Positions 8,816 through 56,023 of a stretch of DNA of 64,000 nt are shown here, piece after piece. Numbering within the stretch: position 1 is the first letter of the stretch; each line of letters starts with the position of its first letter. Source of the DNA: an uncultured Candidatus Peribacteria bacterium (lineage in GTDB: Bacteria > Patescibacteriota > Gracilibacteria > Peribacterales > Peribacteraceae); contig CAZXKA010000002.1 of NCBI GenBank assembly GCA_964641555.1, positions 10,033 to 74,032 on the forward strand, read 5' to 3'. Below the pieces are notes generated by a model. That model was not told where the DNA came from. It ran no database searches and saw nothing but the letters and a program-made list of their open reading frames with translations. The translations under genes were made by a program, and so were the position numbers.

Positions 8816-8844
8816 TTGACGGTACTCTTGGCAATCCCTACTAT
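8816..8844 (+). promoter_or_regulatory. Sigma70-like promoter of rpmB
   Basis: TTGACG (8816-8821), 17 nt spacer, TACTAT (8839-8844), then 10 nt to ATG 8855. Confidence 0.6.
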
Positions 8845-9064: not shown

Positions 9065-9110
9065 GTCATGCCTCGGTACGATGTGCGCGACGCACATCAC
9101 TCGGCATGAC
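9065..9110. terminator. Nested GC-rich hairpin between the convergent rpmB and arfB-like genes
   Basis: GTCATGCC 9065-9072 pairs with GGCATGAC 9103-9110, enclosing GATGTGCG-cga-CGCACATC. There is no U-tract on either strand. Confidence 0.45.
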
Positions 9111-15341: not shown

Positions 15342-15395
15342 CGTGGGAGAGAGTATAGGGTACGTGCTACACTTCCGGTACGATTCATCCCCTCC

Positions 15396-21480: not shown

Positions 21481-21552
21481 CCAATAGTAATTTTAGTTCA
21501 AAATAATCATAGGATTGCAGTCGGGCTCACCGACGTCCTATCGTTCCTTCAA

Positions 21553-21565: not shown

Positions 21566-22438
21566 ATGGCACTCACCGTGCCCACTACTGTTCCGCAGCA
21601 GTACACCGCCTGGGACGTTGAAGAAGAGCTGGGATCTTGGTCCAAGCGCTTCGCCGACGCCAACCGTCTTCTACAAGAGACCCGCCTCCTGACGGGGGTC
21701 GACGTGGAGAACGGTGCCGGCAACATGTTGCTCCGGCGGTACGCATCGATCGTCGCTCACGAGGGCTTCGTCGCGAAGGGTGCGATCCAGAACGTCACCG
21801 AGTTCAAGCTGGGAGGAGTGATCAATGTCGCTCTCAACCAGGGGAACAAGCTCGGACTCGTGTGGAACTACCGTCCTATCATTCCACGCGAGCAGATGCC
21901 GGTGTACCGTTTCCTTTGGAATGGATGTGCGAATCTTCTCGAGCCCAAGCTACATCCTGATGATCCGGACATTCGGCTCAGCATCGAGAAGCGCATGCTT
22001 CAGTACAAAGCATTCCTCCTTCGCGTCGCTCCTTTGCTCGGCATGTGGTCGCTCGAATTACCGCGAGGCTACGGCGACGTCACGAAGACGCCGGTGCAAA
22101 ACGCCGAAAGCGAGGCGGAGGAAGAGTTACAGGTTCGCTGCGTTGAACGCTTCGAGCTCGGACTCCTCGGTGAGGACACGGCACAGAACCCTGCCCTTAA
22201 CTCCTACTGCTTCGTGCGGATGGATGTGAAGGGCAAGCCACGACAACCGAGGGATCTGTGGGAGAAGATCGCCGCGAAGGCCGAATGGCTCACGCTATCC
22301 GAACTCGCGCAGGCGTTCAAAGACGGACACGTGGTCGATCCGTACACGCTGGCCGCTCTGCAAGTTCTGCAGTTTGAACGGCCGGACTTGTACGCCTCGA
22401 TCGGTGATCCTCGCCGACGACAAACCCGACCTCTGTAA
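21566..22438 (+). CDS. Nudix-fold (ADP-ribose pyrophosphatase-like) protein with a degenerate Nudix box
   Basis: ELPRGYGDVTKTPVQNAESEAEEELQV aligns to ELPAG..GE..REx2EExGU, with K replacing the first E, S replacing R and Q replacing G. The gene has its own AT-rich upstream block, SD and terminator. Confidence 0.5.
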   Translation: MALTVPTTVPQQYTAWDVEEELGSWSKRFADANRLLQETRLLTGVDVENGAGNMLLRRYASIVAHEGFVAKGAIQNVTEFKLGGVINVALNQGNKLGLVWNYRPIIPREQMPVYRFLWNGCANLLEPKLHPDDPDIRLSIEKRMLQYKAFLLRVAPLLGMWSLELPRGYGDVTKTPVQNAESEAEEELQVRCVERFELGLLGEDTAQNPALNSYCFVRMDVKGKPRQPRDLWEKIAAKAEWLTLSELAQAFKDGHVVDPYTLAALQVLQFERPDLYASIGDPRRRQTRPL

Positions 22439-34454: not shown

Positions 34455-34780
34455 CGACGTATTGTAGCCAATTTCTTCTCGTGACGAGCGACGATCTGCA
34501 TCGTCGCAATCAGGTCTTCTTCCAGAGCCTCGTCGCGCTGACGGCATTCCTCGAAACCCTGTTTCATCGCCACGAAACCGTCATCTACTTTCTTTTCCAG
34601 TCCAACGACTTTGTTCTCCAAACCGTCGATACGATCCTTCAGACCCTTGATGTCCTGCTTCAGCTCGGACTTCATGCCCTGCATGTGTCCAAGAAGCAGC
34701 TGCGACTGCTCATCGATGCGCCTGTCTGTTGCATCCAAGCGTTCCAGAACCATGCCGATGGTAGCCCGTCGTTTTGCCAT
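34451..34780 (-). CDS. Small coiled-coil protein, unknown function; first gene of the operon
   Basis: MAKRRATIGMVLERLDATDRRIDEQSQLL..LKDRIDGLENKVVGLEKKVDD has heptad character. Visibly lower GC than its neighbours. A leaderless promoter lies directly upstream. Confidence 0.65.
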   Translation of the reverse strand: MAKRRATIGMVLERLDATDRRIDEQSQLLLGHMQGMKSELKQDIKGLKDRIDGLENKVVGLEKKVDDGFVAMKQGFEECRQRDEALEEDLIATMQIVARHEKKLATIRR

Positions 34781-34788
34781 GGACACCG

Positions 34789-34817
34789 ATGCTACGACGC
34801 GACGGCGGACGGCACAA
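34789..34817 (-). promoter_or_regulatory. Promoter of the coiled-coil/WbpB-E-D-like operon
   Basis: On the minus strand: TTGTGC (34817-34812), 17 nt spacer, TAGCAT (34794-34789), then 8 nt to ATG 34780. Confidence 0.55.
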
Positions 34818-34879
34818 CCGATCGGGCTAGACGTTATCGGTCACAGCGAGCAATGCCTTGCTGGTAAGCCACATATCGC

Positions 34880-34900
34880 GTTCTGCATGGTGGCAGAACG
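34880..34900 (-). terminator. Short hairpin 3 nt after the methyltransferase stop
   Basis: GTTCTGC 34880-34886 pairs with GCAGAAC 34894-34900. There is no U-tract. Confidence 0.3.
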
Positions 34901-34903
34901 TCT

Positions 34904-35758
34904 TCACTTTTCACCCGTGATGATCGCCGTCATGCCCCACGCTCGACACACCCACTCCTTCGCGGCTTTCGGCAGCAGTTTGCCGAGCGGCAGCCAGGGG
35001 TGGGGCAGCTGGTTCGGGACGCCGTGGTTGTCGTGGATGAAGACGCCGACCTTTTGGAAGTCTTTAAAGAGGTTGCGAAACTGCTTCCGGGAGTAGAACT
35101 TGGCGAGCATGTTGCCGCCGACGTGCGCGCCGTCGGTGTAGCGGTTCATGAGTGATTGGTTGTCGTACTTCAAGTACTGCCCGCGCAGAATGCCGCGGCC
35201 GAATTGGATCGCGTAGCGCATGTGGACGGAGTTCAGGTGGTACATCATCGCCAGGAACTTCCCGCCGGGCTTGAGCACGCGCCGGATCTCGGCGATCGCT
35301 TGCTCGGTCTCCGGCATGTGCATGAGGCAGCCCCATGCGCACACGTAATCGAACGTGTTGTCTTCGAAGGGCATTTTCTGCGCGTCGGCTTGGATCACGT
35401 TCGCGTGCAAGTGATAGAGCTCGAGACGTTTCTTCGTGAGCTCGACGGCTTTCGCGGTCAGGTCGATCGCCGTGACGTCGGCGCCCATGCGGACGAACTG
35501 CTCGGTGAGGACGCCCGTGCCGCAGGCGATGTCGAGCACCTTCTTGCCCTTCAGCCCTTTCATGTCGACGTACCGCGTGAGGAAGGGGTAGCCGCCGTTC
35601 TGCATGAACGGGATCCACTTCAGGAATTTGCGGTCGATGTTCCGATAGAACTCCCACGATCCTTCCTCCGCGTCCACGAAGTAGTTGAAGGGGTTTTTGT
35701 GCCACCAGTCTTGGACCTTGGCGTTCAGGGCCGAATCATTGCGAAATTCCGTGCGCAT
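34904..35758 (-). CDS. Class I SAM-dependent methyltransferase
   Basis: Motif I VLDIACGTGVL and LKPGGKFLAM. TACACT (35770-35765) lies 6 nt upstream of the ATG. Confidence 0.85.
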   Translation of the reverse strand: MRTEFRNDSALNAKVQDWWHKNPFNYFVDAEEGSWEFYRNIDRKFLKWIPFMQNGGYPFLTRYVDMKGLKGKKVLDIACGTGVLTEQFVRMGADVTAIDLTAKAVELTKKRLELYHLHANVIQADAQKMPFEDNTFDYVCAWGCLMHMPETEQAIAEIRRVLKPGGKFLAMMYHLNSVHMRYAIQFGRGILRGQYLKYDNQSLMNRYTDGAHVGGNMLAKFYSRKQFRNLFKDFQKVGVFIHDNHGVPNQLPHPWLPLGKLLPKAAKEWVCRAWGMTAIITGEK

Positions 35759-35868: not shown

Positions 35869-37476
35869 TTGCGTTCTCGTTTCACTCTCATCGTTGCATG
35901 CATCTCGGTATGGTTGGGGTTCCTCACGATCCTGCCGTACGTCGTGCATGTCGTGCATCCTGCCATGAGCGGCCTTACGGTGAGCCGCGACAAGGACTAC
36001 GCGAACTACTACAGCCGGCTGCAGCGCGCACTCGACGGCTATCCGGAAGAATCCGCGAACGCGATTACGGGCGTGGGATCGGGCATCAAGGGAATGCAGA
36101 CCGCCGGCGTCGAACAGGTGGTTGGAACGCTCTTCGGCTGGACGGGCATCGCGGCCGCCCCCCTCTCCGTCATTCTCACGGCGATTTTTACCGCTGCGTT
36201 GTTCGCATTGTTCTTCTGGCTCTTTCGAGAGATCGGGTTTGATCGGCGCTGGAGTCTCGGAATGGCGGTCGTGCTGTTTTTCGTGATGGGCCACGTCCTT
36301 TCCCGCATGCCGCATCCCGGCTGGTCGTTCCTTCCGGCGATCGTGGCGCTCATCGCGTTCATCCGGTTCTGGCGCCGACCGAGCTTCAACGGCGTGCTGA
36401 TCGCCGGGCTTCTCCTCGGTGTTCTGCCGTTTCTCTACTTCTGGCATTGGACGTTCGTCTGGGCCGCGATTGGATGCGTTGTTCTGTTCTCGCTCGGTTC
36501 AACGCCGAACGACCGGCTGCTCCTGCGCCATCCGTGGTATGCACTACTGCTTGCCGTAATCACGCTGCTCGTTGCATCGCCGTTCATCCTGCAAACCGCC
36601 GCGCTCATGGCCGATCCGCTCTACCCGGAGGTCGCGGTCCGCGCGAGCTTCCTCTACGAACGCACGCCGGAATCCTGGCCGCGGACGATTCTCTTGCTTA
36701 TTCAGTTCATCACATTGGCATCGCTTTGGAAACAACAGCGAGCCGATCGGTCGTACGTTATCGCACTCGGTCTTCTTGGCGGCATCGTCCTCGCGATGCA
36801 CCAGAACGTGCTCCACGCGAAGATTCTCATGTTCGCGTCGCACTTCTACCCGCAGTTGCTCCTGGCGACGATCGTCGCGGGTGCGTGGGTGCTGACGCGG
36901 CGGACGGATCTCGTTCGTCGCGCGGTCATCGCCGGCATCGCGGCCGTCTTCTTGTTGGCCGGTGCGTGGGATTACGCGTTCATGCACGCGTTTTTCGTGC
37001 CGTCCGAGAAGGATTTCAAAGAACAACATCTATTGCAACCGATCGCGCTTCTTCGGGAAATGCCGCCAGCGACGATTCTCACCGACGCGACGACCGGGCG
37101 CACGCTCACCGCATGGACGCACCACGGCATCGTCTACACAACACACGCGCGGTTCCTCTTTATTTCGGATGCCGAACTGGCGGAACGGTTCTGCGTGACG
37201 GAACTCTTCACGCCCGTACCGGATCCCTTCCGCGCGCTCTATATCGAGTACAACCACGTCCTCGATTCGCAAGAGATGCGCCTGCGCGAGCGGTCGCTCG
37301 TGACCGAGGCGTGCGAACGAGTGAAGCAGAATCCGATGGAGTATTTGCAAAAGTACAGCGTCTCGCACGTGCTCTGGAACAGCATCGAGCGTCCCGATTG
37401 GGTCGTGCCGGAGGATGGCTTGCCGCTCGTAACGATCGCTTCCGGCACCGGCTGGACGCTGTGGATGGTAGAGTGA
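35869..37476 (+). CDS. Polytopic membrane protein, family A paralog 1 (GT-C or polymerase-like candidate)
   Basis: 535 aa, TTG start. Many TM helices and a C-terminal soluble domain ending HVLWNSIERPDWVVP..GWTLWMVE. It is a clear paralog of the next gene. Confidence 0.7.
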   Translation: MRSRFTLIVACISVWLGFLTILPYVVHVVHPAMSGLTVSRDKDYANYYSRLQRALDGYPEESANAITGVGSGIKGMQTAGVEQVVGTLFGWTGIAAAPLSVILTAIFTAALFALFFWLFREIGFDRRWSLGMAVVLFFVMGHVLSRMPHPGWSFLPAIVALIAFIRFWRRPSFNGVLIAGLLLGVLPFLYFWHWTFVWAAIGCVVLFSLGSTPNDRLLLRHPWYALLLAVITLLVASPFILQTAALMADPLYPEVAVRASFLYERTPESWPRTILLLIQFITLASLWKQQRADRSYVIALGLLGGIVLAMHQNVLHAKILMFASHFYPQLLLATIVAGAWVLTRRTDLVRRAVIAGIAAVFLLAGAWDYAFMHAFFVPSEKDFKEQHLLQPIALLREMPPATILTDATTGRTLTAWTHHGIVYTTHARFLFISDAELAERFCVTELFTPVPDPFRALYIEYNHVLDSQEMRLRERSLVTEACERVKQNPMEYLQKYSVSHVLWNSIERPDWVVPEDGLPLVTIASGTGWTLWMVE

Positions 37477-37480
37477 GGGT

Positions 37481-39103
37481 GTGGAACGCCGCTTCGTCGC
37501 CGTCGCATTGCCGCTTCTGACGCTCGTATGGTTCGTGGTGCTCGTCGGCCCCTACGTCTCGTATCGGCTCGATCCGGCATTCATGGGCCAGACGCCGATT
37601 CGATTGCTGGATGACGGTTCGTATTTCAGTCGCATTCAGACATCTCTGTTAGGACGGTTCGGTCCCTATGAAAATGGAATTACGAGTCCCGAATTCCAGA
37701 TTCGTGCCGCCGGACCGGGATTACTGGAAAAGACGGAGGGCATGCTCCTGCGATGGACGGGCTGGACCGGCGTCGACGTCGGCGTCGCGTTCATGGCGGT
37801 CGCGGGCGCGCTCATGCTGCCGCTCCTGTACGCGTTTCTGCGCGGCATGCACATTCGTCCGGGAATCGCGCTCGTCGCGTCGGCGCTCTTCTGCGTATCC
37901 ATGGCCGGAGTGCTGACGCGGCCGCATCTTTCCGTGCTGTTGCCGATCGCCGTGCTGACGCTGCTCGTCGTCCAACGCATTGCACATCGGCCCTCATGGA
38001 TCCTCGTGCTTCCTGCGGCCGCGCTCCTTGCGGTGCAACCCGCATTCTACTTTTGGACGTGGATGACGACGTGGGCCGCCTGCGCGGCGCTCTTCATAGT
38101 ACGATGGTGGACGCCGGAAGGATCTATGCGCGATCGAGCGCTGCGGATGTTGGCCGTGACGGGCGGGCTCGCATTGCTCTTCGCATTGCCGTCGCTCATC
38201 TCGACGTGGGTTCTGCAAACGGCCGACCCGACGTTCGCCGAAATGTCGCTGTACCGCAGCGGGCTCTACCCATCGCATGCGATCGCTTCGCCGATCCGAT
38301 CGATTCTCCAACTTCTCCTGGTCGCCGGCGGCGTTATGCTCTTTGTACGCTTCACGGAATGGCGCGCGATCCTCGCGGCTCCGCTTTCGCTCTCCGTCGG
38401 TGTGTTTCTCGTGGTGCATCAGCACGTGCTCCACGGCAACGATTTTCTGTCCTCCAGCCACTACGTTCCGATGGCGACGCTTGCGGCCGTCGCGCTGGGT
38501 GCATGGACGCTCGACCAGCTTCGTGCGGGAACGCGTGATCGACGATTCATAGTTCCGGCGATCATCGCGCTGTTATCGGCTGCGGTGCTCGTTGCGGCGG
38601 CCGCGTGGGATTACAAACTTGGTTGGACGTTCCTCTGGCGCGACGATATCTCCCTCGCGACGCGGCATCTCGCTCCCGCCATGGAATATCTGCGCGACGG
38701 TGACCGTCGCACGATCCTCACCGACGCCCGCACCGCTGTGGAAGTGACGTCGCGCACGGACGACGACGTCGTCTTCACGCCGTACGTCCAGCACCTGCTC
38801 GTGTCGAACGCCGAATTCGCGCGTCGCGGCTGCATGGCCGATCTCTTCCAGCCGAGAGGTCCCGATGTCGCGGCGCTCGCGTGGCACACGCTGCAGTTCC
38901 GCGGCGCATTCATGCTCGAAGAACGCACGGCGGAGTTCCGTAAGATCTGCGGCCGTCTTCTGGAAAATCCTCAGGGAGCGCTCGGCCTCTATGGCGTCGA
39001 TCTCGTGCTGTGGAACGAACGGGAGCGTCCGGATTGGGCGATGCCGTCGTATCTGGTGCAGGTAGAGGAAGGGGAGGGGTGGAGCCTGTGGCGTGTTGAT
39101 TGA
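37481..39103 (+). CDS. Polytopic membrane protein, family A paralog 2
   Basis: 540 aa, GTG start 5 nt after the previous stop. It aligns with paralog 1 (YFSRIQTSL vs YYSRLQRAL; FYFWTWMTTWAA vs FYFWHWTFVWAA; ILTDARTA vs ILTDATTG; LVLWNERERPDWAMP..GWSLWRVD). Confidence 0.7.
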   Translation: MERRFVAVALPLLTLVWFVVLVGPYVSYRLDPAFMGQTPIRLLDDGSYFSRIQTSLLGRFGPYENGITSPEFQIRAAGPGLLEKTEGMLLRWTGWTGVDVGVAFMAVAGALMLPLLYAFLRGMHIRPGIALVASALFCVSMAGVLTRPHLSVLLPIAVLTLLVVQRIAHRPSWILVLPAAALLAVQPAFYFWTWMTTWAACAALFIVRWWTPEGSMRDRALRMLAVTGGLALLFALPSLISTWVLQTADPTFAEMSLYRSGLYPSHAIASPIRSILQLLLVAGGVMLFVRFTEWRAILAAPLSLSVGVFLVVHQHVLHGNDFLSSSHYVPMATLAAVALGAWTLDQLRAGTRDRRFIVPAIIALLSAAVLVAAAAWDYKLGWTFLWRDDISLATRHLAPAMEYLRDGDRRTILTDARTAVEVTSRTDDDVVFTPYVQHLLVSNAEFARRGCMADLFQPRGPDVAALAWHTLQFRGAFMLEERTAEFRKICGRLLENPQGALGLYGVDLVLWNERERPDWAMPSYLVQVEEGEGWSLWRVD

Positions 39104-39106
39104 CAT

Positions 39107-39140
39107 GAAAAATCAGGAGAGACGACGTTCGTCTCTCCTG
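39107..39140 (-). terminator. Intrinsic terminator of the orphan RNA gene
   Basis: On the minus strand: CAGGAGAGACGA-acg-TCGTCTCTCCTG (12 bp stem, 39140-39114) followed by AUUUUUC (39113-39107). Confidence 0.75.
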
Positions 39141-39366
39141 TCCTGGACGGGATCTTGAGCGGGGAGGATGGGACCGAAGTCCGTCGCTCCGTTCGGTATG
39201 CAAGGGCGGTGTTTCACTTGTGACTCAGCGAGGCCCAGAGGCCGGCGTCAACGTCTACCGCCTACTCTACGCAGGCACACCTAGCTTCTGACCGCACATG
39301 TAAGGAGTCGAACCTCCGAAATCCCGAAGGATTCCGCCGCCACCGGGTGCGTTCCCGTTGCCAGGA
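39108..39366 (-). ncRNA. Orphan structured RNA of about 255 nt, class not recognised
   Basis: It has its own promoter and terminator and no plausible ORF. There are two UUCG-tetraloop hairpins (39171-39182 and 39318-39335) and a T-loop-like GGAG-GUUCGA-CUCC (39304-39317). The 5' end CCUGGcaACGGGA (39365-39353) pairs with the 3' end UCCCGUCCAGG (39152-39142). Confidence 0.6.
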
Positions 39367-39371
39367 TCGAT

Positions 39372-39399
39372 ATAGTATACTTAATTTATATATTGTCAA
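39372..39399 (-). promoter_or_regulatory. Near-consensus sigma70-like promoter driving the orphan RNA
   Basis: On the minus strand: TTGACA (39399-39394), 16 nt spacer, TACTAT (39377-39372). It sits in a roughly 40 nt AT-rich block that is conspicuous in this GC-rich DNA. TACTAT is the same -10 hexamer as in the rpmB promoter. Confidence 0.6.
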
Positions 39400-39440
39400 A
39401 TACAGGCGGAAGCCCAGCTCTCTGCTACTCTAAACGTCTC

Positions 39441-40601
39441 ATGCACATCGCGTACTGCACGAACGTCCGGCTTCCCAGTGAGCGCGCCCACGGGCGCCAG
39501 GTTGCCCATGTGTGCCGAGCGTTGTGGCAATTGGGGCACCACGTTGACGTCTTCGCGCCGTACCGTGAGAACGTGATCGAGCAGGATTTCTGGACGTACG
39601 AGCGGTTACCGAAAGACATTACACTGACGTACGTCGGAGATACGGATTACATCAAGACGCGTTGGCCGGGCGCATTGAAACTGTGGCTCATGAACTCAAT
39701 GTTGCGCAAAGAAATGTCAAACATGCTGGAGGAGCGCGAGCCGGATTTGCTCTACACACGCTCGCCGGCGCTACTTCCCGCGTTGTTGAAGACCGGCATT
39801 CCGACCGTGCTTGAGCTGCACCAGCTGCCGCGGTTTGCGCGCCATTTGTTCGTCGAAGAATGCAATGCGTGTGCGCGCGTCGCCTGTCTTACGTCACCGA
39901 TGCGCGATGAGCTCGTGCGATGGGGTGTGAAGAAAGAGAAATTGATCGTGGAGGGCGATGCTGTCGATCTCAGTCGATTCGAGAACCTGCCGTCGCCGGC
40001 CAAAGCCCGTTCGAAGTGGAACGTGAAGACGGATCGGATGGTCATTGGCTACGTCGGCAGACTGACGACGCTGGGAAAAGAGAAAGGAGTCTCGACCGTG
40101 CTCCATGCGTTGGCCATGCTGAAGAGCGAGAAGCGCTTCTTCGGGTTCATCGTCGGTGGGCCGCAAGACGATAAGCAGCGATACCAGAAGCAAGCTGCGA
40201 AATTGGGACTCACCGAAGATGACGTGCTCTTTGTGGGTGAAATCCAAGCCGCGGACGTGCCGGCCGCGCTCTCGGCGTGCGACGTGCTCGCGATGCCGTT
40301 CCCGGATTTGCCGCATTACCGCACGCACATGTCGCCGCTGAAGATGTTCGAGTACATGGCGGCGGACCGGCCGATGATCACGAGCGATTTGCCAACGGTG
40401 CGCGACGTCCTCAGCGAAGAAACGGCGGTATTCTGTGAGCCGGACAGTACATCGAGTTTCGTGCGCGCAGTGCGATGGATTCACGATCATCCGGAAGAAG
40501 CTCGGAAGCGATCGACGGCCGCGGCCGCGCTCGTGAAGCGTCATACGTGGCAAGAACGCATGAAACGCATCCTTGATGGTGTACCATCCCGCCGCGCATG
40601 A
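39441..40601 (+). CDS. GT4 family glycosyltransferase
   Basis: ORF 39393..40601 was trimmed to ATG 39441 (MHIAYCTNVRLPSERAHGRQV). GYVGRLTTLGKEKGV..PLKMFEYMAADRPMITSDLP. Confidence 0.82.
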   Translation: MHIAYCTNVRLPSERAHGRQVAHVCRALWQLGHHVDVFAPYRENVIEQDFWTYERLPKDITLTYVGDTDYIKTRWPGALKLWLMNSMLRKEMSNMLEEREPDLLYTRSPALLPALLKTGIPTVLELHQLPRFARHLFVEECNACARVACLTSPMRDELVRWGVKKEKLIVEGDAVDLSRFENLPSPAKARSKWNVKTDRMVIGYVGRLTTLGKEKGVSTVLHALAMLKSEKRFFGFIVGGPQDDKQRYQKQAAKLGLTEDDVLFVGEIQAADVPAALSACDVLAMPFPDLPHYRTHMSPLKMFEYMAADRPMITSDLPTVRDVLSEETAVFCEPDSTSSFVRAVRWIHDHPEEARKRSTAAAALVKRHTWQERMKRILDGVPSRRA

Positions 40602-43758: not shown

Positions 43759-45069
43759 TCATGCCAAAAACGCCGGGATGAACGCCCATGCGACGGCGAG
43801 GTTGAACGCGGCCAGTGCCGCGGTCGTTTTCATCGAACAGGATTTCCAGGCGATCGCGGCGCAGGCGAGGATGAACGGCGTGCTCATCGTGACCATGAGG
43901 TCGAGGTCCGACGGGAATCGGAGATCGAAGTTGAAGAGCGTGACGAAGGCGACGACTCCCAGCGCGCAGATCGACAAGAACGCGTCCGTGCGGTCGAATG
44001 CGATCGCGTTCTTCCATCGGTTCCACAGCGTCATGGCCGCGATGAGCGTGCCCGTGGGCACGACGATGAAGAGGATGTTTGCGATCTGCAGCGCGTGATC
44101 GACCGAGAAGAACAAGAAGACCGCGGCGCCCGCCAATCCCGCTTCGGTGAGCGGAACGAACGTTTCCTTGTCGCCGCCGCCGTAAATGTCTCCGGCGACG
44201 ATGGCGTACCCCATGGCCGAGACGACGATGAGCGTCGCGACGAAGACGACGACGGCCGTCCCGAGAACGATCGCGCCGTTCCTGGCGGCGAAGCCGAGAT
44301 CGCGTTCCCGCAGCAGCAACGCCGCGAACGCGATGGGAGCGAGATACGCGTTTTGACCGTGTGTCAGCGCGGCGAAGGTGAGCAATGCGGAGCCGAGCAC
44401 CAGCCATCGCGTGCCGCGTTCTTCGGTTCGCAGATAGCGCACGAACGCCCACAGCGACCAGAGCAGAAACGGAATGCCGATGAGCGTGGCTTCGTAGTAG
44501 TCGCGGATGAAGACGATCTGCAACGCACTGCCGAGGTAGAACAGTGCCCCGAGTTTCATCCACGCCCACCGCTTTTCCGGCTCTTGTTGTCCGATTTCCC
44601 ACAAGACCGCGAACAATGAAACGGCTGCGACGGCGCCCATGGCCACCGGAAGCAGTCCGCGATCGATGCCGATGCCGAGCCACCACAGGTAGAACAGGTT
44701 CGCGAGGATGGACGATGCGAAGAGCGTCGTATCGTCGGCCACCAGCGACCGCCAGTGCGAGTCGCCCATGGCGCGCGCGACGTTGTCGATGCCGGCCGTC
44801 GCATGGATCGCGGCGAGGAGCAGGAGCGTCGCGATCGGAAGGAAGCGGCGCCATCCGTCGCCCCATGCGACGATGGACCCGATGCAGATGCACAGAAGCG
44901 CGAGCGTCGCGGACGACGGGAGCGCGTGCCAATCGAGGAGCCATGTCCGCTGGACGACCTCGGTCGGAACACCGCTCAATTCCCAGACGGAGACGTAGGA
45001 GAAGAAGAGGAATGGCGCAACAGCCACGATCACGGCGGCCAGCAGCGTCGGGAAGAGCGAGAATCTCAT
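43759..45069 (-). CDS. Polytopic membrane protein (436 aa), possible Wzy-type polymerase or ligase
   Basis: ORF 43759..45909 was trimmed to ATG 45069 (MRFSLFPTLLAAVIVAVAPFLFF). About 12 TM helices. The function is inferred only from context (a flippase is present and no other polymerase candidate was recognised). Confidence 0.5.
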   Translation of the reverse strand: MRFSLFPTLLAAVIVAVAPFLFFSYVSVWELSGVPTEVVQRTWLLDWHALPSSATLALLCICIGSIVAWGDGWRRFLPIATLLLLAAIHATAGIDNVARAMGDSHWRSLVADDTTLFASSILANLFYLWWLGIGIDRGLLPVAMGAVAAVSLFAVLWEIGQQEPEKRWAWMKLGALFYLGSALQIVFIRDYYEATLIGIPFLLWSLWAFVRYLRTEERGTRWLVLGSALLTFAALTHGQNAYLAPIAFAALLLRERDLGFAARNGAIVLGTAVVVFVATLIVVSAMGYAIVAGDIYGGGDKETFVPLTEAGLAGAAVFLFFSVDHALQIANILFIVVPTGTLIAAMTLWNRWKNAIAFDRTDAFLSICALGVVAFVTLFNFDLRFPSDLDLMVTMSTPFILACAAIAWKSCSMKTTAALAAFNLAVAWAFIPAFLA

Positions 45070-45079
45070 GTCGGACGGA

Positions 45080-45095
45080 AGTATAGCGGTATACT
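45080..45095. promoter_or_regulatory. Back-to-back TATACT -10 boxes for two divergent leaderless genes
   Basis: Plus strand: TATACT 45090-45095, then 10 nt to ATG 45106. Minus strand: TATACT 45085-45080, then 10 nt to ATG 45069. Confidence 0.5.
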
Positions 45096-45105
45096 GGCGC
45101 CGACC

Positions 45106-46290
45106 ATGCGCATTCTCATGCTCACCGACAGCTTCCACCCCGAAGTGGGCGGAAGCGAAACGGCCATTTGGAGACTCGGCGAAGCGCTCGTCGCCCTCGG
45201 GCACGAGGTCGGCGTCGCGGTCATCTCGAAACCCAACGCGAGCAGCCCCTCCGATAAATTTTCGTTCTGGAACGTGTCGTCGAAGATCGGCACGGTGGAT
45301 CTGAAGTTCCTCGGGAAGATCCGGAATCTTCGGACGATCATCCGCGCGTTCCGACCGGACGTGCTCAACGTGCACTTCATGCTGGAATCCGGATACGTCG
45401 GAGTGAAAGCGGCGAAGGCCGAGGGGATTCCCGTGGTGCTCACGAACCGCGGCAAGGGCCTCTACAACGAAGCGACGTCGCTCCAGGAGTCGATCATGTA
45501 CCGGTTCTGGAACCGCGGCGCGGCGAAGGCCGATGCCTACATCGCGACGAGCGAGGAGATGGTCGACCGCGGCCGCGAGCGGTTCGGCCTCGAGACGACG
45601 GCGATTTCGAACGGCGTGGAAATCGACACCTTCCGCCCGGACGTCGACGGCGCGCCCATCCGCAAGCGCTACGGCGTCGGCCCGACGCAGCGCGTGATCC
45701 TCTGTGCGCGGCGGCTCGTCCCCAAGAACGGCATCGAGTATATGGTGCGTGCATTGCCCGGTGTCCTCCGGCATCACGACGCGGTGCTCTGGCTGGCCTC
45801 GCCGCTCATTCGCGAATATGAGACATTGAAAGCGCTCACCGAAGAGCTTGGAATTACGGAGAAGGTTCGGTTTCTCGGCAGCGTCGATCATACGGAACTG
45901 CCGGCGCACTTCACGGCGGCCGATCTGGTCGTGCAGCCGTCCATCGCCGAAGCACGCAGTTTGGCCTGTCTGGAAGCCATGGCCGCGGGGTCAGCGATCA
46001 TCGCGACCGCCACGGGAGGGCTGAAGGAACTTATCACGCACGGCGAGAACGGGTACCTGATTCCCGAATTCCAGGAAGCGACGTACGCCGTCGGTGCGGT
46101 GCAGGAAGAGGGCGTCAAGAATCTCGAACGAGCGGTCATCGACGTGCTCGGGAACGAAGAGCTGCGCCAACGGCTGAAGCGTGGTGCGCGGCAGTACGCG
46201 CTCACGTGCAGCTGGCCGGAAATCGCGAAGCAGACGCTTGCTGTCTACGAGAACACGATCGCTTCCCATTCGTCTTCCAAACACGGCTGA
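45106..46290 (+). CDS. GT4 family glycosyltransferase
   Basis: MRILMLTDSFHPEVGGSE..CARRLVPKNGI..QPSIAEARSLACLEAMAAGSAIIATATGG. Confidence 0.88.
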   Translation: MRILMLTDSFHPEVGGSETAIWRLGEALVALGHEVGVAVISKPNASSPSDKFSFWNVSSKIGTVDLKFLGKIRNLRTIIRAFRPDVLNVHFMLESGYVGVKAAKAEGIPVVLTNRGKGLYNEATSLQESIMYRFWNRGAAKADAYIATSEEMVDRGRERFGLETTAISNGVEIDTFRPDVDGAPIRKRYGVGPTQRVILCARRLVPKNGIEYMVRALPGVLRHHDAVLWLASPLIREYETLKALTEELGITEKVRFLGSVDHTELPAHFTAADLVVQPSIAEARSLACLEAMAAGSAIIATATGGLKELITHGENGYLIPEFQEATYAVGAVQEEGVKNLERAVIDVLGNEELRQRLKRGARQYALTCSWPEIAKQTLAVYENTIASHSSSKHG

Positions 46291-49299: not shown

Positions 49300-49943
49300 G
49301 GTTTGCGGGCGACGCAGACGACGTTGTTGTAGACGATGCCGGGAGGGCCTTTCAGCCGGTCGAGGGATCGGAAAATTTTCTCGACGCGCGGTGCCAGGAG
49401 CTTGTTGAGCCGCGATCGGTGCGGATTGAGCGGGTTGAAGAACCGATGCTTTACGGTTTCGCCCGCGCTCGCCCAGAATCCGCCGTGCTTCGTGCAGATC
49501 AGGACTTCCAATCCCGCCCGTTCCACCATGTGTCGCATGCCTTGTTCGGTGAACCGGTAGAAGTCCGTCGGGTTCGCGTGGAACGGCGCCATGAACGGCG
49601 CCGAGAGGATGCACGTCCCGCCCGGGCGGAGGATCCGCGCGATCTGCTCGATCATCACCCACGGTTCTTGTACGTGCTCCATCACCTGGTTGCTCACGAT
49701 CGTGTCATAGCTCGCGTCCGGAATCGGCGGGTTGAGAACGTCGCCGACGATGTCGGGACGCACGGCGGGATCGATGTCGATCGAGGTATAGGTCTTCGCG
49801 CGCTCTGAGACGAGCGCCTTCTGCTTCCCGCCGCCCCCGCCGAAATCCAGCACGTCGCCGCGCACGAAATCGAGCAGCGCGACCATGACTTCGCGCGTGC
49901 CGTAGAGCCGGGAGAGGGAGCGTCCGTCGACCACGGGGGCCAT
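49296..49943 (-). CDS. Class I SAM-dependent methyltransferase
   Basis: VLDFGGGGG, MEHVQEPW, LRPGGTCILS. ATG 49943 is preferred over TTG 49961. Confidence 0.8.
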   Translation of the reverse strand: MAPVVDGRSLSRLYGTREVMVALLDFVRGDVLDFGGGGGKQKALVSERAKTYTSIDIDPAVRPDIVGDVLNPPIPDASYDTIVSNQVMEHVQEPWVMIEQIARILRPGGTCILSAPFMAPFHANPTDFYRFTEQGMRHMVERAGLEVLICTKHGGFWASAGETVKHRFFNPLNPHRSRLNKLLAPRVEKIFRSLDRLKGPPGIVYNNVVCVARKP

Positions 49944-49981
49944 GATAGCGGACGGGATCAAACGGGCTATACTGCCGCGGC

Positions 49982-52047: not shown

Positions 52048-53862
52048 TCAGGCAGCATCGTACACGGCATCGAACCAGTGGCTCAGCTGGATGATGCTCG
52101 AGAGCGTGTGCAGGTGGTAGCCGCGTTTGTCCGTGTGTTCGCTCGCGATCCGACGCAGCGCGTCGATGTCGAAGAAGTCTTTCATGCGCGGTTGTTCCAG
52201 CGCTTCGTCGATGAGGGGAGCGGCTTCGCGGCGCAGCCACTTGGCGACCGGCGGGTAGAAGCTCGCTTTCGGGAGCGTGAAGAGGTGTTCGGGCAGAATG
52301 CCGCGGTAGGTGTCTTTCAGCAGGCGTTTCGTGCGCTTGAATCCGACGTGCCAGTTGCCCGGCGTTGCATGGGAGAACGCGATCACGCGCGGGTCGAGGA
52401 ACGGGATGCGCGCCTCCAAGCCGTTGCCGAGTCCGACGCCGTCGATGAGGCGCAGCGATTCGGACACGAGCCACGTATGGCGGTCGAACTCCATGAAGTC
52501 GCGCAGCGGGTCGTCGGTGTGCGGATAGCATTCCGCGAAGAGTTGTCGCGTCGCGGATCCGTCGAACCACGTGCCTCGGGCATAGGAGCAGATTTCGTCG
52601 GCCGGGCGCGCGAGCAGCCGTTCCGCAAGCGCCGCTCCGGGTAACATGCGCAGAACGTCCGCCGGTTGACCCGCGAAGGATCCGGCCAGACCGCGCAGCG
52701 CAGGCGGAACTAAGCGCAGGGCGTGGAGGATCTTGGTCACCCGATAGCGAGGATACCCGCCGAAGAGTTCGTCGCCTCCCGCTCCCGTGAGCGCGACGTC
52801 GACCGTGCGCTTCGCGACCTTGGCGAGCAGGAATTGCGCGACCGAGACCGTGTCGGCGTTCGGCTGCCCGAGCGACCGGACGGTATCGCGGTACAGCGAG
52901 CGTTGGTCGTCCGCCGTCAGGAGGATCTCCGTATGATTCGTGCCGTAGTGCTTTGCCGTGAGGGCCGCGAGATCGGCATCGGCGTTGAATCGGTCGGCGC
53001 CTTCTTCCTTCGTCGCGTCGAACCGGATCGTGAACGTGTTCACCGGACCGCTCGTGGATGCCGCCGCATGGTGCAGGACGATCGACGAATCCATCCCCCC
53101 GCTCAAGAACACGCCCACGGGCTTATCGGAGAGGAGGTGATCGGTGATGACTTGCTGCATCAGCGCCGGGAATCGTTCGCGGAATTCCCGCGGCGATGAC
53201 ACGGAATCGGACACCGCGTTCGATCGAAACGCGGATGCGGTAATCGTGCCATTGTTCCAACTGAGCGTCGTGCCCGGCGCCAATGCCTCGATCCCGTCGC
53301 AGAGCGTTTCGGGCTCGGGGACGTACTGGAGGCGCATGTAGCGCGAGAGCGAGCGCAGGTTCAGCGCGGGTTTCGTCTCGAACGATCGGAGGATCGCCGG
53401 CATCTCGGAGGCGAATCGCAGCTCGCCGGCGACCGTCGACACGTAGAGCGGGTTGATGCCGGATGGGTCTCGGGCAAGGTGCCACGATCGATCGCGCGTG
53501 TCGTAGATCCCGAACGCGAACATCCCCCGCAGCCGCGGCAGGAACGCGAGACCGTGGCGTTCGTAGAGTTTCAGCAGCACTTCGGTATCCGTGTTCGTGC
53601 GGCACTCGAATCGTTCCTGCTCACGCAGCTCGCGGTAGTTGAAAATCTCGCCGTTGAAGACGATCGCGATCGTCCGGTCCGCGTTCCACATCGGTTGGTC
53701 GCCGATCGGGCGCGGATCCAAGATTGCCAGGCGAGCGTGTCCGAGCGAGGCGCCGCTCTCGACGGCGACATGGTCGCCGTCCGGTCCGCGGTGGCGTAGC
53801 GCACGCGTCATCGCCGCGATCTCCTCGCGGCGTTCTCCCGATAGTCCGGCGATCCCGCACAT
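52048..53862 (-). CDS. Asparagine synthase (glutamine-hydrolysing) family amidotransferase, copy 2
   Basis: MCGIAG nucleophile, FLSGGMDSSIV PP-loop. TATACT (53875-53870) lies 7 nt upstream of the ATG. Confidence 0.88.
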   Translation of the reverse strand: MCGIAGLSGERREEIAAMTRALRHRGPDGDHVAVESGASLGHARLAILDPRPIGDQPMWNADRTIAIVFNGEIFNYRELREQERFECRTNTDTEVLLKLYERHGLAFLPRLRGMFAFGIYDTRDRSWHLARDPSGINPLYVSTVAGELRFASEMPAILRSFETKPALNLRSLSRYMRLQYVPEPETLCDGIEALAPGTTLSWNNGTITASAFRSNAVSDSVSSPREFRERFPALMQQVITDHLLSDKPVGVFLSGGMDSSIVLHHAAASTSGPVNTFTIRFDATKEEGADRFNADADLAALTAKHYGTNHTEILLTADDQRSLYRDTVRSLGQPNADTVSVAQFLLAKVAKRTVDVALTGAGGDELFGGYPRYRVTKILHALRLVPPALRGLAGSFAGQPADVLRMLPGAALAERLLARPADEICSYARGTWFDGSATRQLFAECYPHTDDPLRDFMEFDRHTWLVSESLRLIDGVGLGNGLEARIPFLDPRVIAFSHATPGNWHVGFKRTKRLLKDTYRGILPEHLFTLPKASFYPPVAKWLRREAAPLIDEALEQPRMKDFFDIDALRRIASEHTDKRGYHLHTLSSIIQLSHWFDAVYDAA

Positions 53863-53899
53863 GCCGGGGAGTATACCTGCCTGCCGCCGGGCATGTAGG

Positions 53900-56023
53900 A
53901 TGGCCGCGATGCGTTGGTTGTCGTTCTTCCGCCGTCCAAAACACCCGTTTCATGCGCTGGCGACAGAGCCGGCGTACGGCATGCTTCTCGTGGCGATCCA
54001 TGCGTTCGTCACGGCACTGGTAGTCGTTCCATTGCTGTTTCCCGAGCTGGATTTCTGGCGAAATCTCTCACCGAACGGAGGCGTGAAGACGTACGTCGGG
54101 CTCGTCGGAGGCATCGGCGGCGCGATCGTGCTCCTGCGGTGGTTCGTGCCGCGCCTATGGCAGCGCGATTGGGGCGTGTACGGCGCGCTCGTTGCGAAAC
54201 TGTGTCTCCTCACAGTGCTTCTTGTTCTGTTCAACACTTCTTCGTTTGTAACAGCGATCATCGTACTTATTGCAAGCATCGCGATCATCCCGACCGCGAT
54301 ATTCGTCCATGCCGATCGCGAACACGCGGTCCGCGTCGCGCTCGCCGTCTTCGCCGCGGCCGCCGCGCTGATCGTCAGTTTCTCAGCGGAAGATTACTTC
54401 GCCTTCCAAGCGGATCGTTTGGTGTTCGCAACCGTGCTTGCGACCGTCGCGCTGTTCGGTAGTACGTATTGGTGGCTGGGGCGTGAGCCGACGCGCTTCC
54501 GCTTCTTCGATGGCGTCGTCGTTCTGTTCTTCATTGCGTTGCCGTTTCTCTCGGCCGGTCGGTGGGACTTGTACCACTACGGATTGATCCTCGGTCCGGT
54601 TCAAGAGCTGCTCCACAACGGTCGTTTGCCGTTCAGCGATCTCCATGCCTACTACGGCACGGGCCTCACGGTCTTCCTTGCCGGATGGTTCTCGCTTCTG
54701 GGTATCGTCTCGGCGGAAGGGCTTCTGCTTCTTCAAAAATTACTGCTCTCCGGTGCGTACGTCGCGTTGTACGCGCTCTGTCGCTCGCTATGGGGTGACC
54801 GCCGCCTCTCGTTCCTCGCGACGTTCGCCACGTTCGCGTTCTACGGTGCATTCCTCGGTCCTGTCGCGTACGAAACGCCCTCGAGCGGAATGCTCCGCTA
54901 CGGCTGGATGGTCGTCGTCCTGTTGCTCCTCACGCTTCGACAGAGACGACCGATGGCATGGCTGTGGGTCGATATATTCATCGCTTTCATCTGCGCGATC
55001 GCGACGCTGTGGTCGTCCGATAACGTGCTCTACACGGTCGTGCCCGTCTTCGCGTTGCTCGTGCTCGGATGGGAATGGCGGCGATTGGGGATCACGTTAG
55101 GCGCGTACGTTGGATTCTCTGTTGTGCTGCTATTTTTTCTCAGCGCACCAGCGTTACTGGCGGGAGAGCGCATCCACTTCTCGCTCTACAGCGAATACCA
55201 AGCGGTACACGCCGCGGGATTCGGCGGGGGCATCATCGCGCTGCGCGATCTCTTCTGGCTCTTACCGGCGTTCATGGGTCTGGGATTCGCTCTCCGTCGT
55301 GCCGATCGCCCCCAAGATGAGCGCGTCACGCTTCTCGCGCTGTGGTGTCTCGCGACGCTGTCGTATTTCGTGTGGCACGGCCACTGGAAAGTCCTGCCGT
55401 CTGTCTCGTTTGCGTTCGTCGTTCTGGCCATCGCTGGCGCTCGTCTCCTTCCGCAAGCACTATCGCGGATCGTGTCATCGGTCATCGTGGCCGTTTTTCT
55501 TTCATCGCTGTATCTGCCGGCGGCCCATCTGTTGTCCGGTCGCGATGCCGTTCTTGCATCAGCGGGCGACCGGTCGCTCTTGATGTCGAATGCACCGTGG
55601 ATGCACGACGAATTCCGGCGGCGCCGCTGTTCCGACGATGTCTTGGCGCTTCGGCCGTACGTCGAGAGCGGCGGCCTCGCGCTCCTGTTGGATCGGCATG
55701 ATGCGTACAACATTTACGTCTGTCTCGGTACCGGGAACGCGTTCAACATCGATCCGACGCAGGCGTTGGAATTTCCCGGGATCGGCGATGCGCTGTTGGA
55801 GAACGTACGCACAACGCGTACGCAGTATCTTCTCGTCGGCGATCCGAGTGTGCCGTTTATCGCTCATGCTGCGGATCGTCTCAGCCCGATCATCGGCAGT
55901 CGCACGATGCGCGTCGTTCCGACCCAGAAGCTCGATGCGTTGATCGAAGAACTGTCGCTGCGTCCCATCGATACGATCGAGGTCTACGGCGAACCCCTGA
56001 CGATCTACCGCCGCTTGCCATGA
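53900..56023 (+). CDS. Polytopic membrane protein (about 708 aa), GT-C-like candidate
   Basis: The real part of ORF 53639..56023. ATG 53900, or 53909 (MRWLSFFRRP). Many TM helices and a soluble C-terminal domain. Confidence 0.65.
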   Translation: MAAMRWLSFFRRPKHPFHALATEPAYGMLLVAIHAFVTALVVVPLLFPELDFWRNLSPNGGVKTYVGLVGGIGGAIVLLRWFVPRLWQRDWGVYGALVAKLCLLTVLLVLFNTSSFVTAIIVLIASIAIIPTAIFVHADREHAVRVALAVFAAAAALIVSFSAEDYFAFQADRLVFATVLATVALFGSTYWWLGREPTRFRFFDGVVVLFFIALPFLSAGRWDLYHYGLILGPVQELLHNGRLPFSDLHAYYGTGLTVFLAGWFSLLGIVSAEGLLLLQKLLLSGAYVALYALCRSLWGDRRLSFLATFATFAFYGAFLGPVAYETPSSGMLRYGWMVVVLLLLTLRQRRPMAWLWVDIFIAFICAIATLWSSDNVLYTVVPVFALLVLGWEWRRLGITLGAYVGFSVVLLFFLSAPALLAGERIHFSLYSEYQAVHAAGFGGGIIALRDLFWLLPAFMGLGFALRRADRPQDERVTLLALWCLATLSYFVWHGHWKVLPSVSFAFVVLAIAGARLLPQALSRIVSSVIVAVFLSSLYLPAAHLLSGRDAVLASAGDRSLLMSNAPWMHDEFRRRRCSDDVLALRPYVESGGLALLLDRHDAYNIYVCLGTGNAFNIDPTQALEFPGIGDALLENVRTTRTQYLLVGDPSVPFIAHAADRLSPIIGSRTMRVVPTQKLDALIEELSLRPIDTIEVYGEPLTIYRRLP

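Follow-up and report, generated by a model that had tools for sequence, protein, structure and literature searches.

The window, by which we mean the whole 64-kb stretch of DNA analysed here, probably contains a genuine stand-alone RNA gene of recent acquisition, the core of which mimics the L1 stalk of 23S rRNA. The gene is located in a 337-nt gap bounded by the stop codon (39103) of a gene for a 540-aa membrane protein and the start codon (ATG, 39441) of a GT4 glycosyltransferase gene, two co-directional genes which form part of a cell-envelope polysaccharide cluster. A non-coding gap of this size had already been reported in an earlier interpretation of the same DNA (hereafter the sequence-only reading), and its position between two protein genes was borne out. 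Alignment with six relatives (alignment A2), whose flanking protein is 46-84% identical and each of which has the junction present on the fetched contig, identified ~316 extra bases at positions 39104-39419 (ends ±~5 nt), whereas the spacer between the flanking genes comprises 7-27 nt in these relatives; further fetched contigs stop short of this site. The RNA unit was not found at the equivalent site in any of the six (6/6 with the junction on contig), nor in ~48 kb of the contig of the closest relative, while an independent Logan assembly (L029) contains an identical insert, and sample SRR8893624 carries the locus in identical form. The insert occupies the interval from the membrane-protein stop codon to a -10-like box that is conserved ahead of the glycosyltransferase gene (TG-n-TACnCT, 39423-39431, plus strand). 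This box, a retained part of the ancestral spacer whose G, TAC and CT do not vary among all six genomes, lies outside the insert and 9 nt upstream of the glycosyltransferase ATG, and thereby marks the right boundary. Within a few bases, both neighbouring genes and the box were left intact by the insertion (A2), and neither a terminal inverted repeat nor a target-site duplication was detected at the insert ends. As judged from these alignments, the ~316-bp insertion is specific to this lineage, and because it is missing from all known relatives it points to a recent acquisition rather than a conserved housekeeping RNA.

The minus strand of the insert carries a putative promoter (TTGACA-16-TACTAT, 39399-39372) inside an AT-rich block (39357-39412), which represents the only sigma-70 match of at least 10/12 in the 64-kb window, both strands included. 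Its -10 hexamer is identical to that of the rpmB promoter of this genome (TTGACG-17-TACTAT, 8816-8844); the sequence-only reading had proposed both the promoter and this comparison, and both hold. At the opposite end, an intrinsic terminator (39107-39140, minus strand) consists of a hairpin (39140-39114) with a 12-bp perfect stem and a 3-nt loop, followed by an AUUUUUC tail. This GC stem and tail, also described previously, were confirmed as the only hairpin of the window with a stem of more than 9 bp followed by a T-tract, by far the strongest terminator present, with a folding z of -5.9. Promoter and terminator are correctly oriented, ~230 nt apart and without an ORF between them, and they delimit a predicted non-coding transcript of ~255-260 nt (39107-39366, minus strand), the start of which is placed by the -10 box and the end by the terminator. 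Furthermore, promoter, tRNA-like arms, L1-like domain and terminator share one sense orientation. An AUG (39106-39104) directly follows the terminator U-tract and coincides with the left junction of the insert. The minus-strand ORF right after the U-tract (38573-39106) is antisense to the conserved membrane-protein gene, arginine-rich and without a Pfam match, and was judged spurious; as noted earlier, no gene lies downstream on the minus strand.

No ORF with a ribosome-binding site was identified in the transcript, and codon periodicity was not detected in its interior. Likewise, no protein homology was found in any frame when a concatenated six-frame translation was compared with 5.8 billion proteins (E up to 10), and tblastn with the asparagine synthases of the window yielded noise only. 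A type I toxin-antitoxin system, for which a small hydrophobic toxin ORF and an antisense RNA would be expected, was rejected, as the minus-strand ORFs are 10-34 aa long, charged and without a Shine-Dalgarno sequence. Collectively, these predictions support a self-contained minus-strand transcription unit without coding potential.

The central third of the predicted transcript resembles ribosomal RNA. In an Rfam search of a short (281-nt) stretch, 87 nt at 39195-39281 (minus strand) matched helices 76-78 of LSU rRNA, i.e. the H76-H77-H78 L1 stalk (RF02540 positions 2204-2291), with an E-value of 2.3e-10 and a score of 39.6 bits, which is below the 50-bit gathering score that is set for whole rRNAs. 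The sequence-only reading had left the class of the RNA unrecognised; this remains correct in that no Rfam family reached its gathering score, but it does not apply to the stalk-like third. A 601-nt Rfam E-value search did not report the L1-stalk match because of speed filters. The domain is closed by the 10 bp of H76 (GGUGUGCCUG/CUUGCAUACC), a helix that had previously been noticed as a GGUGUGC/GCAUACC pairing, with coordinates that were each off by 6 nt (correctly 39281-39275 and 39201-39195). It contains a first T-loop (AGAGUA, 39268-39263) with G39270-U39269 just before it, and a second T-loop (UGAAA, 39216-39212). The G:A platform for the tRNA elbow and the invariant core of six nucleotides (AG..A and UG..A) are completely present when compared with the published description of this architecture (PMC3664808). 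By manual count on the RF02540 alignment, 23 of the 24 highly conserved consensus positions are kept; the one altered position changes GGGAG to GGUAG, which could result in weaker uL1 binding. Canonical pairs are formed at 21 of 23 positions of the stalk alignment, the stems diverging from the consensus while still being paired, and the conserved unpaired nucleotides are kept. Several conserved positions depart from the bacterial consensus, which sets the domain apart from a plain copy of rRNA, and the archaeal Rfam model scores higher. No rRNA match was found in the 5' flank searched alone or elsewhere in the 281-nt stretch, and the alignment ends at the 10 bp of H76. Thus, the domain is not embedded in a 23S rRNA gene with H75/H79 and the rest of domain V, but lies in 316 bp between protein genes.

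On the 5' side of this domain, the minus strand encodes two adjacent hairpins reminiscent of tRNA. Hairpin A (39318-39335), with a 7-8-bp stem and a cUUCGg cap, is the longest UUCG hairpin of the window and resembles a tRNA variable arm, and hairpin B (39302-39317; GGAGG-UUCGACU-CCUU), with 4 bp and a 7-nt loop of canonical T-loop type, is similar to the T arm of a tRNA. Together (39335-39302) they follow a class II tRNA layout, in which a long variable arm directly precedes a T arm with a UUCRANY loop, and their joint folding z is -2.2. A purine/pyrimidine-generalised version of the A+B pattern retrieved only two contig stretches from JGI metagenomes, both with one identical tRNA-Ser gene sequence. 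The Rfam alignment to tRNA-Sec was weak and non-significant (12.7 bits, E 3.2). ARAGORN identified no tRNA or tmRNA in the unit at default and 90% thresholds, and at 80% it returned only a poor match, beside an obvious false one, with no complete cloverleaf. In addition, no CCA follows the T arm, although the tRNA genes of this genome encode CCA. A standard or permuted tmRNA was therefore rejected, since an acceptor stem with 3' CCA, a tag reading frame and an ARAGORN or Rfam match are all lacking, in agreement with the earlier remark that canonical tmRNA features are absent.

The two ends of the transcript can be joined by a closing helix between a 5' arm (CCUGGcaACGGGA, 39353-39365) and a 3' arm (UCCCGUCCAGG, 39142-39152), both on the minus strand. 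The end-to-end helix of the sequence-only reading is hence present (39365-39353/39152-39142), but it is unremarkable, as its -19.5 kcal/mol are equalled or exceeded by 7% of random segments (p ~0.07). A third hairpin, C (GGAGCGACGGAC-UUCG-GUCCCAUCCUCC, 39163-39190, minus strand), shows no excess over chance by energy (z = -0.6) and is directly followed by the 10-nt unpaired stretch CCGCUCAAGA. Two hairpins with cUUCGg (39182-39171 and 39335-39318) and a T-loop-like GGAG-GUUCGA-CUCC (39317-39304) had been noted before, and all three were found again. UUCG hairpins of at least 4 bp occur 32 times in 128 kb of strand, and the 226-nt body contains 2 vs 0.06 expected. Compared with shuffled sequence, the body minus the terminator has a z of -0.52 (plus strand, -0.35); the values are +0.5 for the interior without the closing stem, -0.3 for its centre and -0.6 for the 3' part, and the z of -2.8 for the full transcript is attributable to the terminator alone. 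Of the hallmarks of a folded RNA claimed earlier, those that stand are the L1 module, by its covariance-model score, and arms A+B, by their joint z, whereas the remainder is at chance level by energy.

An Rfam scan and a check of homologues for covariation had been suggested along with the sequence-only reading. At gathering score, the Rfam search of the 64-kb window retrieved two tRNAs only, and a c-di-GMP-II match of 16 bits was dismissed as chance. No homologue was found by blastn against phages and plasmids, by IMG/VR pattern scans (in one of which nine matches represent a single phage ORF family with a common 19-mer), by a GTDB pattern scan of 185,579 species genomes (23 matches, all tRNAs or coding sequence) or by nhmmer and blastn against 49 fetched loci, in which a weak match in locus L010 is a gene start. 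The window itself contains one copy. The sensitivity of the collection scans was low because only exact pattern matches counted and the patterns were drawn from the tRNA-like arms rather than the L1 module. As no homologue was detected, conservation was not demonstrable and evidence from covariation is lacking.

Based on the features described above, we tentatively favour, with slightly less than even confidence, an inserted minus-strand gene for a stand-alone rRNA mimic which serves as a decoy or sponge for uL1 or the tRNA elbow. According to this model, a non-coding piece of ~316 bp would have entered a very short spacer of the polysaccharide cluster in this lineage only, bringing a complete minus-strand gene for a ~255-nt RNA with a host-type promoter, an end-joining helix and an intrinsic terminator. 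The RNA is presumably made, and its predicted modules would be arranged from 5' to 3' as variable-arm/T-arm-like hairpins, the 87-nt L1-stalk copy and a UUCG-capped hairpin. The L1-stalk copy would contribute interlocked T-loops and a purine platform, as used by the ribosome for the elbow of the E-site tRNA. By analogy, the domain presumably adopts its ribosomal fold, and this predicted fold in turn predicts uL1 binding; a 55-nt rRNA stalk fragment is enough for specific binding of uL1 (PMC2175363). Furthermore, the domain may dock a tRNA-type elbow, either that of a tRNA in trans or that of the RNA's own T-arm hairpin, and the RNA could form a particle with uL1, potentially sequestering free uL1 or tRNA elbows in the manner of a decoy or sponge. 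Locally, and as a by-product, the terminator would prevent antisense read-through into the upstream gene. It is possible, if distinctly more doubtful, that this gene is the first member of a class of stand-alone L1-stalk-mimic RNAs, carried on a small horizontally acquired cassette and acting as a uL1/tRNA decoy outside the ribosome. In such a class, a tRNA-like arm would be joined to the entire module for uL1 binding and tRNA-elbow docking.

As the main alternative, the insert might be an inert mosaic relic, i.e. filler DNA that was captured during a rearrangement of the cluster and consists of fragments of a 23S L1 stalk and a class II tRNA gene, with a promoter and terminator left from a lost gene or operon and a transcript without specific function. 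The cluster changes often, with other lineage-specific gains and losses vs the closest relative at 34470-34907 and 49300-49967 and with a minus-strand methyltransferase gene that fills the same spacer in more distant relatives. Such a history, the singleton status of the insert without homologues, the thermodynamically unremarkable body, and a domain score of 39.6 bits vs 80.7 bits for a longer E. coli stalk segment, as would fit a decaying copy, are compatible with a relic. We nevertheless consider it unlikely, as the modules lie between the best promoter match and the strongest terminator of the window, both undamaged and in the proper position, every module is in sense orientation, and the stalk has retained 21 of 23 pairs and 23 of 24 conserved positions where a drifting pseudogene would be expected to have lost some. 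Moreover, the L1-like module has no rRNA-like flanks, and the neighbouring genes and the -10-like box were spared to within a few bases.

In their standard anatomy, bacterial sRNA genes have a promoter and a Rho-independent terminator on either side of ~250 non-coding nt. This anatomy fits the insert, and the missing folding-energy signal observed here is usual for such sRNAs, so that an ordinary young sRNA, lineage-specific and regulating in trans, could be envisaged which base-pairs via an unpaired C-rich stretch and resembles rRNA and tRNA in shape only incidentally. In line with this, RNA segment 39171-39153 (CCAUCCUCCCCGCUCAAGA) could form 18 bp, interrupted by one bulge, with 53091-53117 (blastn E 0.029), the PP-loop-coding region of an asparagine-synthase-like mRNA of the same cluster. 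However, this complementarity is statistically marginal and falls within coding sequence rather than at a gene start, and an RNAduplex target prediction over gene starts was uninformative. As the 87-nt L1-stalk match (E 2.3e-10) would also be left unexplained, we regard an ordinary sRNA as improbable.

A little less probable again is an orphaned cis-regulatory leader, i.e. the promoter, leader and attenuator-terminator of a gene belonging to a different locus or genome, cut just after its start codon, for example a leader sensing uL1 or tRNA. The AUG directly after the U-tract at the left junction (39106-39104) would suit such an origin, and the tRNA-docking module is common to the L1 stalk, T-box Stem I and RNase P (PMC3664808), while uL1 is known to control its own operon via mimics of its rRNA site (PMC3616713). 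Against this, no gene lies downstream in this orientation, an alternative antiterminator pairing is not evident by inspection, and the known L1-binding leaders are 37-41-nt stems just before rplK or rplA (PMC3616713). A uL1 mRNA leader in its usual context was consequently rejected, the neighbours being membrane-protein and GT4 genes and not rplK or rplA, and a T-box leader was rejected as well, with no Rfam match to T-box or other leaders even at E up to 10. Slightly less credible still is a 316-bp non-autonomous mobile element with outward signals, of the MITE or IS200/IS605 derivative kind. The clean presence/absence polymorphism at a conserved spacer and the perfect subterminal hairpin 10 nt from one end are features of the insert that agree with this idea, but the hairpin is found at a single end only, terminal inverted repeats and a target-site duplication are lacking, no second copy exists in the 64-kb window or any fetched locus, and no transposase, reverse transcriptase or integrase was identified among the larger scanned ORFs of the window.

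Permuted tmRNA genes have their T arm near the 5' end, a position which also matches that of the T-arm-like hairpin. [quoted passage not shown] Even though a variable-arm hairpin followed by a T-arm hairpin inside a 5'/3'-closed molecule is reminiscent of YrlA (PMC4201824), a divergent member of either class missed by Rfam is very improbable and was largely refuted by feature tests, as the larger scanned ORFs, including the nearest flanking genes at 33.4-42.8 kb, contain no TROVE/Ro60 gene, GNCGAAN0-1G is missing from the 5' end and occurs only in the terminator loop (GACGAACG), there is no convincing D arm, D loop with GG or closed acceptor-like stem, the RNA is ~2x the size of YrlA, and relaxed ARAGORN searches, the lack of CCA and the lack of a tag reading frame speak against a tmRNA.

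Among known systems, one close counterpart of the proposed rRNA mimic is the L1 stalk of 23S rRNA itself, with which it shares the three-helix layout, the T-loop cores AG..A/UG..A, the G:A stacking platform and 23 of 24 conserved positions. In contrast to the ribosomal stalk, the copy in the insert is located outside an rRNA gene, within a predicted ~255-nt transcript and between unrelated flanks. Since the match was seen only with a short search stretch, rRNA-like modules of intergenic RNAs may be routinely missed. Like the uL1 sites on mRNA, which are located before rplK/rplA in bacteria and on the L1 operon mRNA in Methanococcus (PMC3616713, PMC2175363), it would be an extra-ribosomal RNA that mimics the uL1 site of 23S rRNA. 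Those sites are 37-41 nt long with a 6-12-bp stem and a G-A bulge (PMC3616713); they lack the T-loop module and adjoin the ribosomal protein gene that they regulate, whereas the insert comprises the full 87-nt stalk in a polysaccharide cluster. The six-nucleotide core and the architecture of the platform recur in Stem I of the T-box and in RNase P (PMC3664808), but the insert does not match the T-box or RNase P models at the sequence level, and it contains helix 78, which is otherwise found in the ribosome only. YrlA and other bacterial Y RNAs mimic tRNA and are bound by Rsr (PMC4201824). Similar to YrlA, the RNA described here would be stand-alone, with 5'/3' closure and a V-like hairpin followed by a T-like one; it differs in the lack of a nearby rsr gene, a 5' GNCGAA motif and a D arm, in its ~2x greater length and in its rRNA-like domain. 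With lineage-specific trans-acting sRNAs, it has in common its own promoter, a Rho-independent terminator, the absence of an ORF and a patchy distribution; typical base-pairing sRNAs contain, to our knowledge, no large rRNA-mimic domain.

Short mRNA sites through which ribosomal proteins repress themselves are known mimics of rRNA, and tmRNA and Y RNAs are known mimics of tRNA. We know of no description of a separately transcribed RNA with a near-complete L1 stalk that includes the tRNA-elbow platform. If our interpretation is true, a complete RNA gene can land in a ~20-nt spacer without harm to either neighbour, and, beyond the cis-acting sites on ribosomal-protein mRNAs, trans-acting decoys for uL1 or tRNA elbows become conceivable.

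The gap that holds the putative RNA gene is 337 nt long. It opens after the stop codon of the gene for a 540-aa membrane protein (37481-39103, plus strand) and closes at the ATG of the gene for a GT4 glycosyltransferase (39441-40601, plus strand). Homologs of the membrane protein share 84, 78, 63, 58, 46 and 43% identity with it; the spacer to the glycosyltransferase gene is 7-27 nt long in five of the lineages looked up, and in the sixth (43% identity, the most distant) it is taken up by a minus-strand methyltransferase gene. The latter (6660-7514 in the fetched loci L030 and L031) occupies the exact spacer that holds the RNA cassette in the window, where, as in closer relatives, that methyltransferase gene sits upstream of two membrane-protein genes. 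Alignment places ~316 extra bases (39104 to ~39419) directly 3' of the stop codon. Their right end adjoins a TG-n-TAC-n-CT box that precedes the ATG by 8-13 nt and is conserved in six of six genomes (39423-39431 on the plus strand of the window, ~7625-7633 in L002, ~3221-3229 in L003 and equivalent sites in L004, L005 and L032). No Shine-Dalgarno sequence precedes this ATG in the six genomes, and the box resembles an extended -10 element, as if the gene were leaderless or nearly so. The start of rpmB is built similarly, with TACTAT 10 nt before the ATG. A Logan assembly made independently from run SRR8893624 has the identical locus sequence, so the cassette is not an assembly artefact.

The surrounding 50 kb constitute one large polysaccharide cluster, which gains and loses DNA often. 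Stretches 34470-34907 and 49300-49967 are missing from the contig of the closest relative; one contains a 111-aa ORF of unknown function that certain other relatives share, and an additional methyltransferase gene (221 aa) lies in the other. Long ORFs of 473-1320 aa in or beside the cluster (10346-11767, 14241-18203, 43759-45909, 53639-56023 and 56020-57876) have no Pfam or NCBIfam match, nor does either of the two membrane proteins of ~540 aa encoded at 35869-39103.

The insert carries its own expression signals in the right order and orientation, and both that the sequence-only reading had pointed out stand out within the window. The minus-strand promoter (TTGACA-16-TACTAT, 39399-39372) is the only sigma-70 match of at least 10/12 on either strand and lies inside one of only three AT-rich blocks. 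It had been likened to that of rpmB, which indeed reads TTGACG-17-TACTAT; with the TATACT and TACACT boxes of tRNA genes, these motifs indicate that the cassette promoter is of the host's own type. The terminator, a 12-bp perfect hairpin (39140-39114, minus strand; z = -5.9) followed by AUUUUUC, is the sole case in the window of a hairpin longer than 9 bp preceding a T-tract, and apart from this inserted one, canonical U-tract terminators seem to be absent from the genome. Downstream of rpmB (9066-9110, plus strand), a nested hairpin GTCATGCC...GGCATGAC surrounds GATGTGCG-CGA-CGCACATC without a U-tract. A second AT-rich intergenic block (21452-21523) with a TTGACC box and an AAGGAG ribosome-binding site precedes a 290-aa ORF (21567-22438) that has no Pfam match and lies in a gene region aligning poorly with the closest relative. 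The RNA unit contains no usable ORF and its interior no codon periodicity; a minus-strand ORF starting directly after the U-tract (38573-39106) is an artefact, lying antisense to the real gene on the plus strand.

The RNA had been described as belonging to no recognised class, which no longer holds for its central domain. Positions 39195-39281 (minus strand) match the LSU rRNA model RF02540 locally at positions 2204-2291 (39.6 bits, E 2.3e-10), a significant match to the part of the model that is the L1 stalk, helices 76-78. The match appeared when a short stretch of 281 nt (39100-39380) was searched, with laxer filters, and was unseen in a 601-nt search (38950-39550) because of speed filters; short rRNA-like modules can thus escape routine scans. 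By our own count on the alignment, 23 of 24 highly conserved consensus positions are retained (the exception being GGGAG to GGUAG), and 21 of 23 base pairs are canonical, despite stem sequences unlike the consensus. The previously proposed GGUGUGC/GCAUACC helix exists and corresponds to H76, 6 nt from where it had been placed, at 39281-39275 and 39201-39195. The docking core is intact, and so are the G and A that make up the stacking platform for the tRNA elbow (Lehmann et al., PMC3664808); the sites are AGAGUA (39268-39263, G-U directly before) and UGAAA (39216-39212). At several conserved positions the domain differs from the bacterial consensus (AUAG to GUAG, GAA to GAC, GGAG to UGAG, AUACC to ACACC); it scores higher with the Rfam archaeal than with the bacterial model, and is therefore not a plain copy of typical bacterial 23S rRNA.

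The gap also contains the two cUUCGg hairpins and the T-arm-like hairpin noted earlier. Upstream of the L1-like domain, hairpins A (39335-39318) and B (39317-39302) match class II tRNAs in layout, A as the variable arm and B as the T arm. Genome and metagenome pattern scans were built on these arms, chosen before the L1 match was seen, and the purine/pyrimidine-generalised A+B pattern recovered nothing but one tRNA-Ser gene sequence, present on two contigs from metagenomes. On the JGI contigs L043 (2300-2700, minus strand) and L044 (10100-10500, plus strand), a tight tRNA gene array includes a tRNA-Ser with a UUCG-capped variable arm. A chance pattern match also retrieved a Planctomycetaceae contig (L010) with a truncated c-di-GMP-I-GGC riboswitch aptamer at its edge (1-46, minus strand; 43.9 bits). 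No complete tRNA, tmRNA or YrlA-type fold was found in the RNA, in agreement with the sequence-only reading on canonical tmRNA.

Of the hallmarks of a folded RNA claimed there, the UUCG hairpins, ~35-fold enriched in the RNA body, and the variable-arm/T-arm pair (z = -2.2) stand out, but the body without terminator does not (z = -0.52; plus strand of the same stretch, -0.35). With the terminator the full transcript reaches z = -2.8; the interior without the closing stem (+0.5), the central third (-0.3) and the 3' hairpin region (-0.6) complete the picture, and folding energies of the RNA do not exceed chance. The end-to-end helix (39365-39353 with 39152-39142, minus strand) is present as proposed, but 7% of random segments equal or better it.

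We tentatively favor the view that the cassette is a self-contained gene, recently acquired, for a structured RNA with an L1-stalk-mimicking core, which would act as a uL1/tRNA decoy or sponge. The insert would be transcribed, and its L1-like domain would bind uL1; a 55-nt stalk fragment suffices for specific uL1 binding (PMC2175363). An elbow of the tRNA type, perhaps the RNA's own T-arm hairpin, may also dock on the domain, and a decoy or sponge for uL1 or tRNA would be the most likely mechanism.

The main rival, an inert mosaic of rRNA and tRNA gene fragments captured in a cluster of frequent DNA gain and loss, appears less likely. In its favor, the element is a singleton: neither the window nor any fetched locus, among them ~48 kb of the 60-kb contig from the closest relative, holds a second copy. 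Folding energy likewise gives no signal, and the model score is below that of a genuine stalk (80.7 bits on the bacterial model for a longer, 121-nt E. coli segment that spans the stalk and was used as calibration). Against such a mosaic, promoter and terminator signals are intact, all parts share a single orientation, stalk pairs and conserved positions are kept, and no rRNA similarity extends into the flanks of the domain.

Among lesser alternatives, an ordinary base-pairing sRNA draws on a marginal 18-bp complementarity, with one bulge, between the 3' part of the RNA (39171-39144, minus strand; CCAUCCUCCCCGCUCAAGA) and 53091-53117 (blastn E 0.029 within the window), which encodes the SGGxDS PP-loop of a minus-strand asparagine-synthase-like gene (52048-53862) and could be a chance match or a target site. 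The points in favor of an orphaned leader, truncated just behind its AUG, are circumstantial. As to a small mobile element, the insert has neither terminal inverted repeats nor a target-site duplication, and no mobile-element, reverse-transcriptase or Ro60 genes occur among the larger ORFs scanned. A divergent member of a known RNA class is likewise a lesser option; the tRNA, tmRNA, YrlA, T-box, MITE and type I toxin-antitoxin readings each lack one or more of the features that define them.

Known uL1 mimic sites are stems of 37-41 nt directly before rplK or rplA (PMC3616713). In contrast to such short stems, the cassette RNA would mimic the complete stalk within a small RNA that stands alone. 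To our knowledge, none of the described cases has this arrangement. The claim is provisional, coming from a single example; the cassette RNA may be regarded as a variant form of rRNA mimicry.
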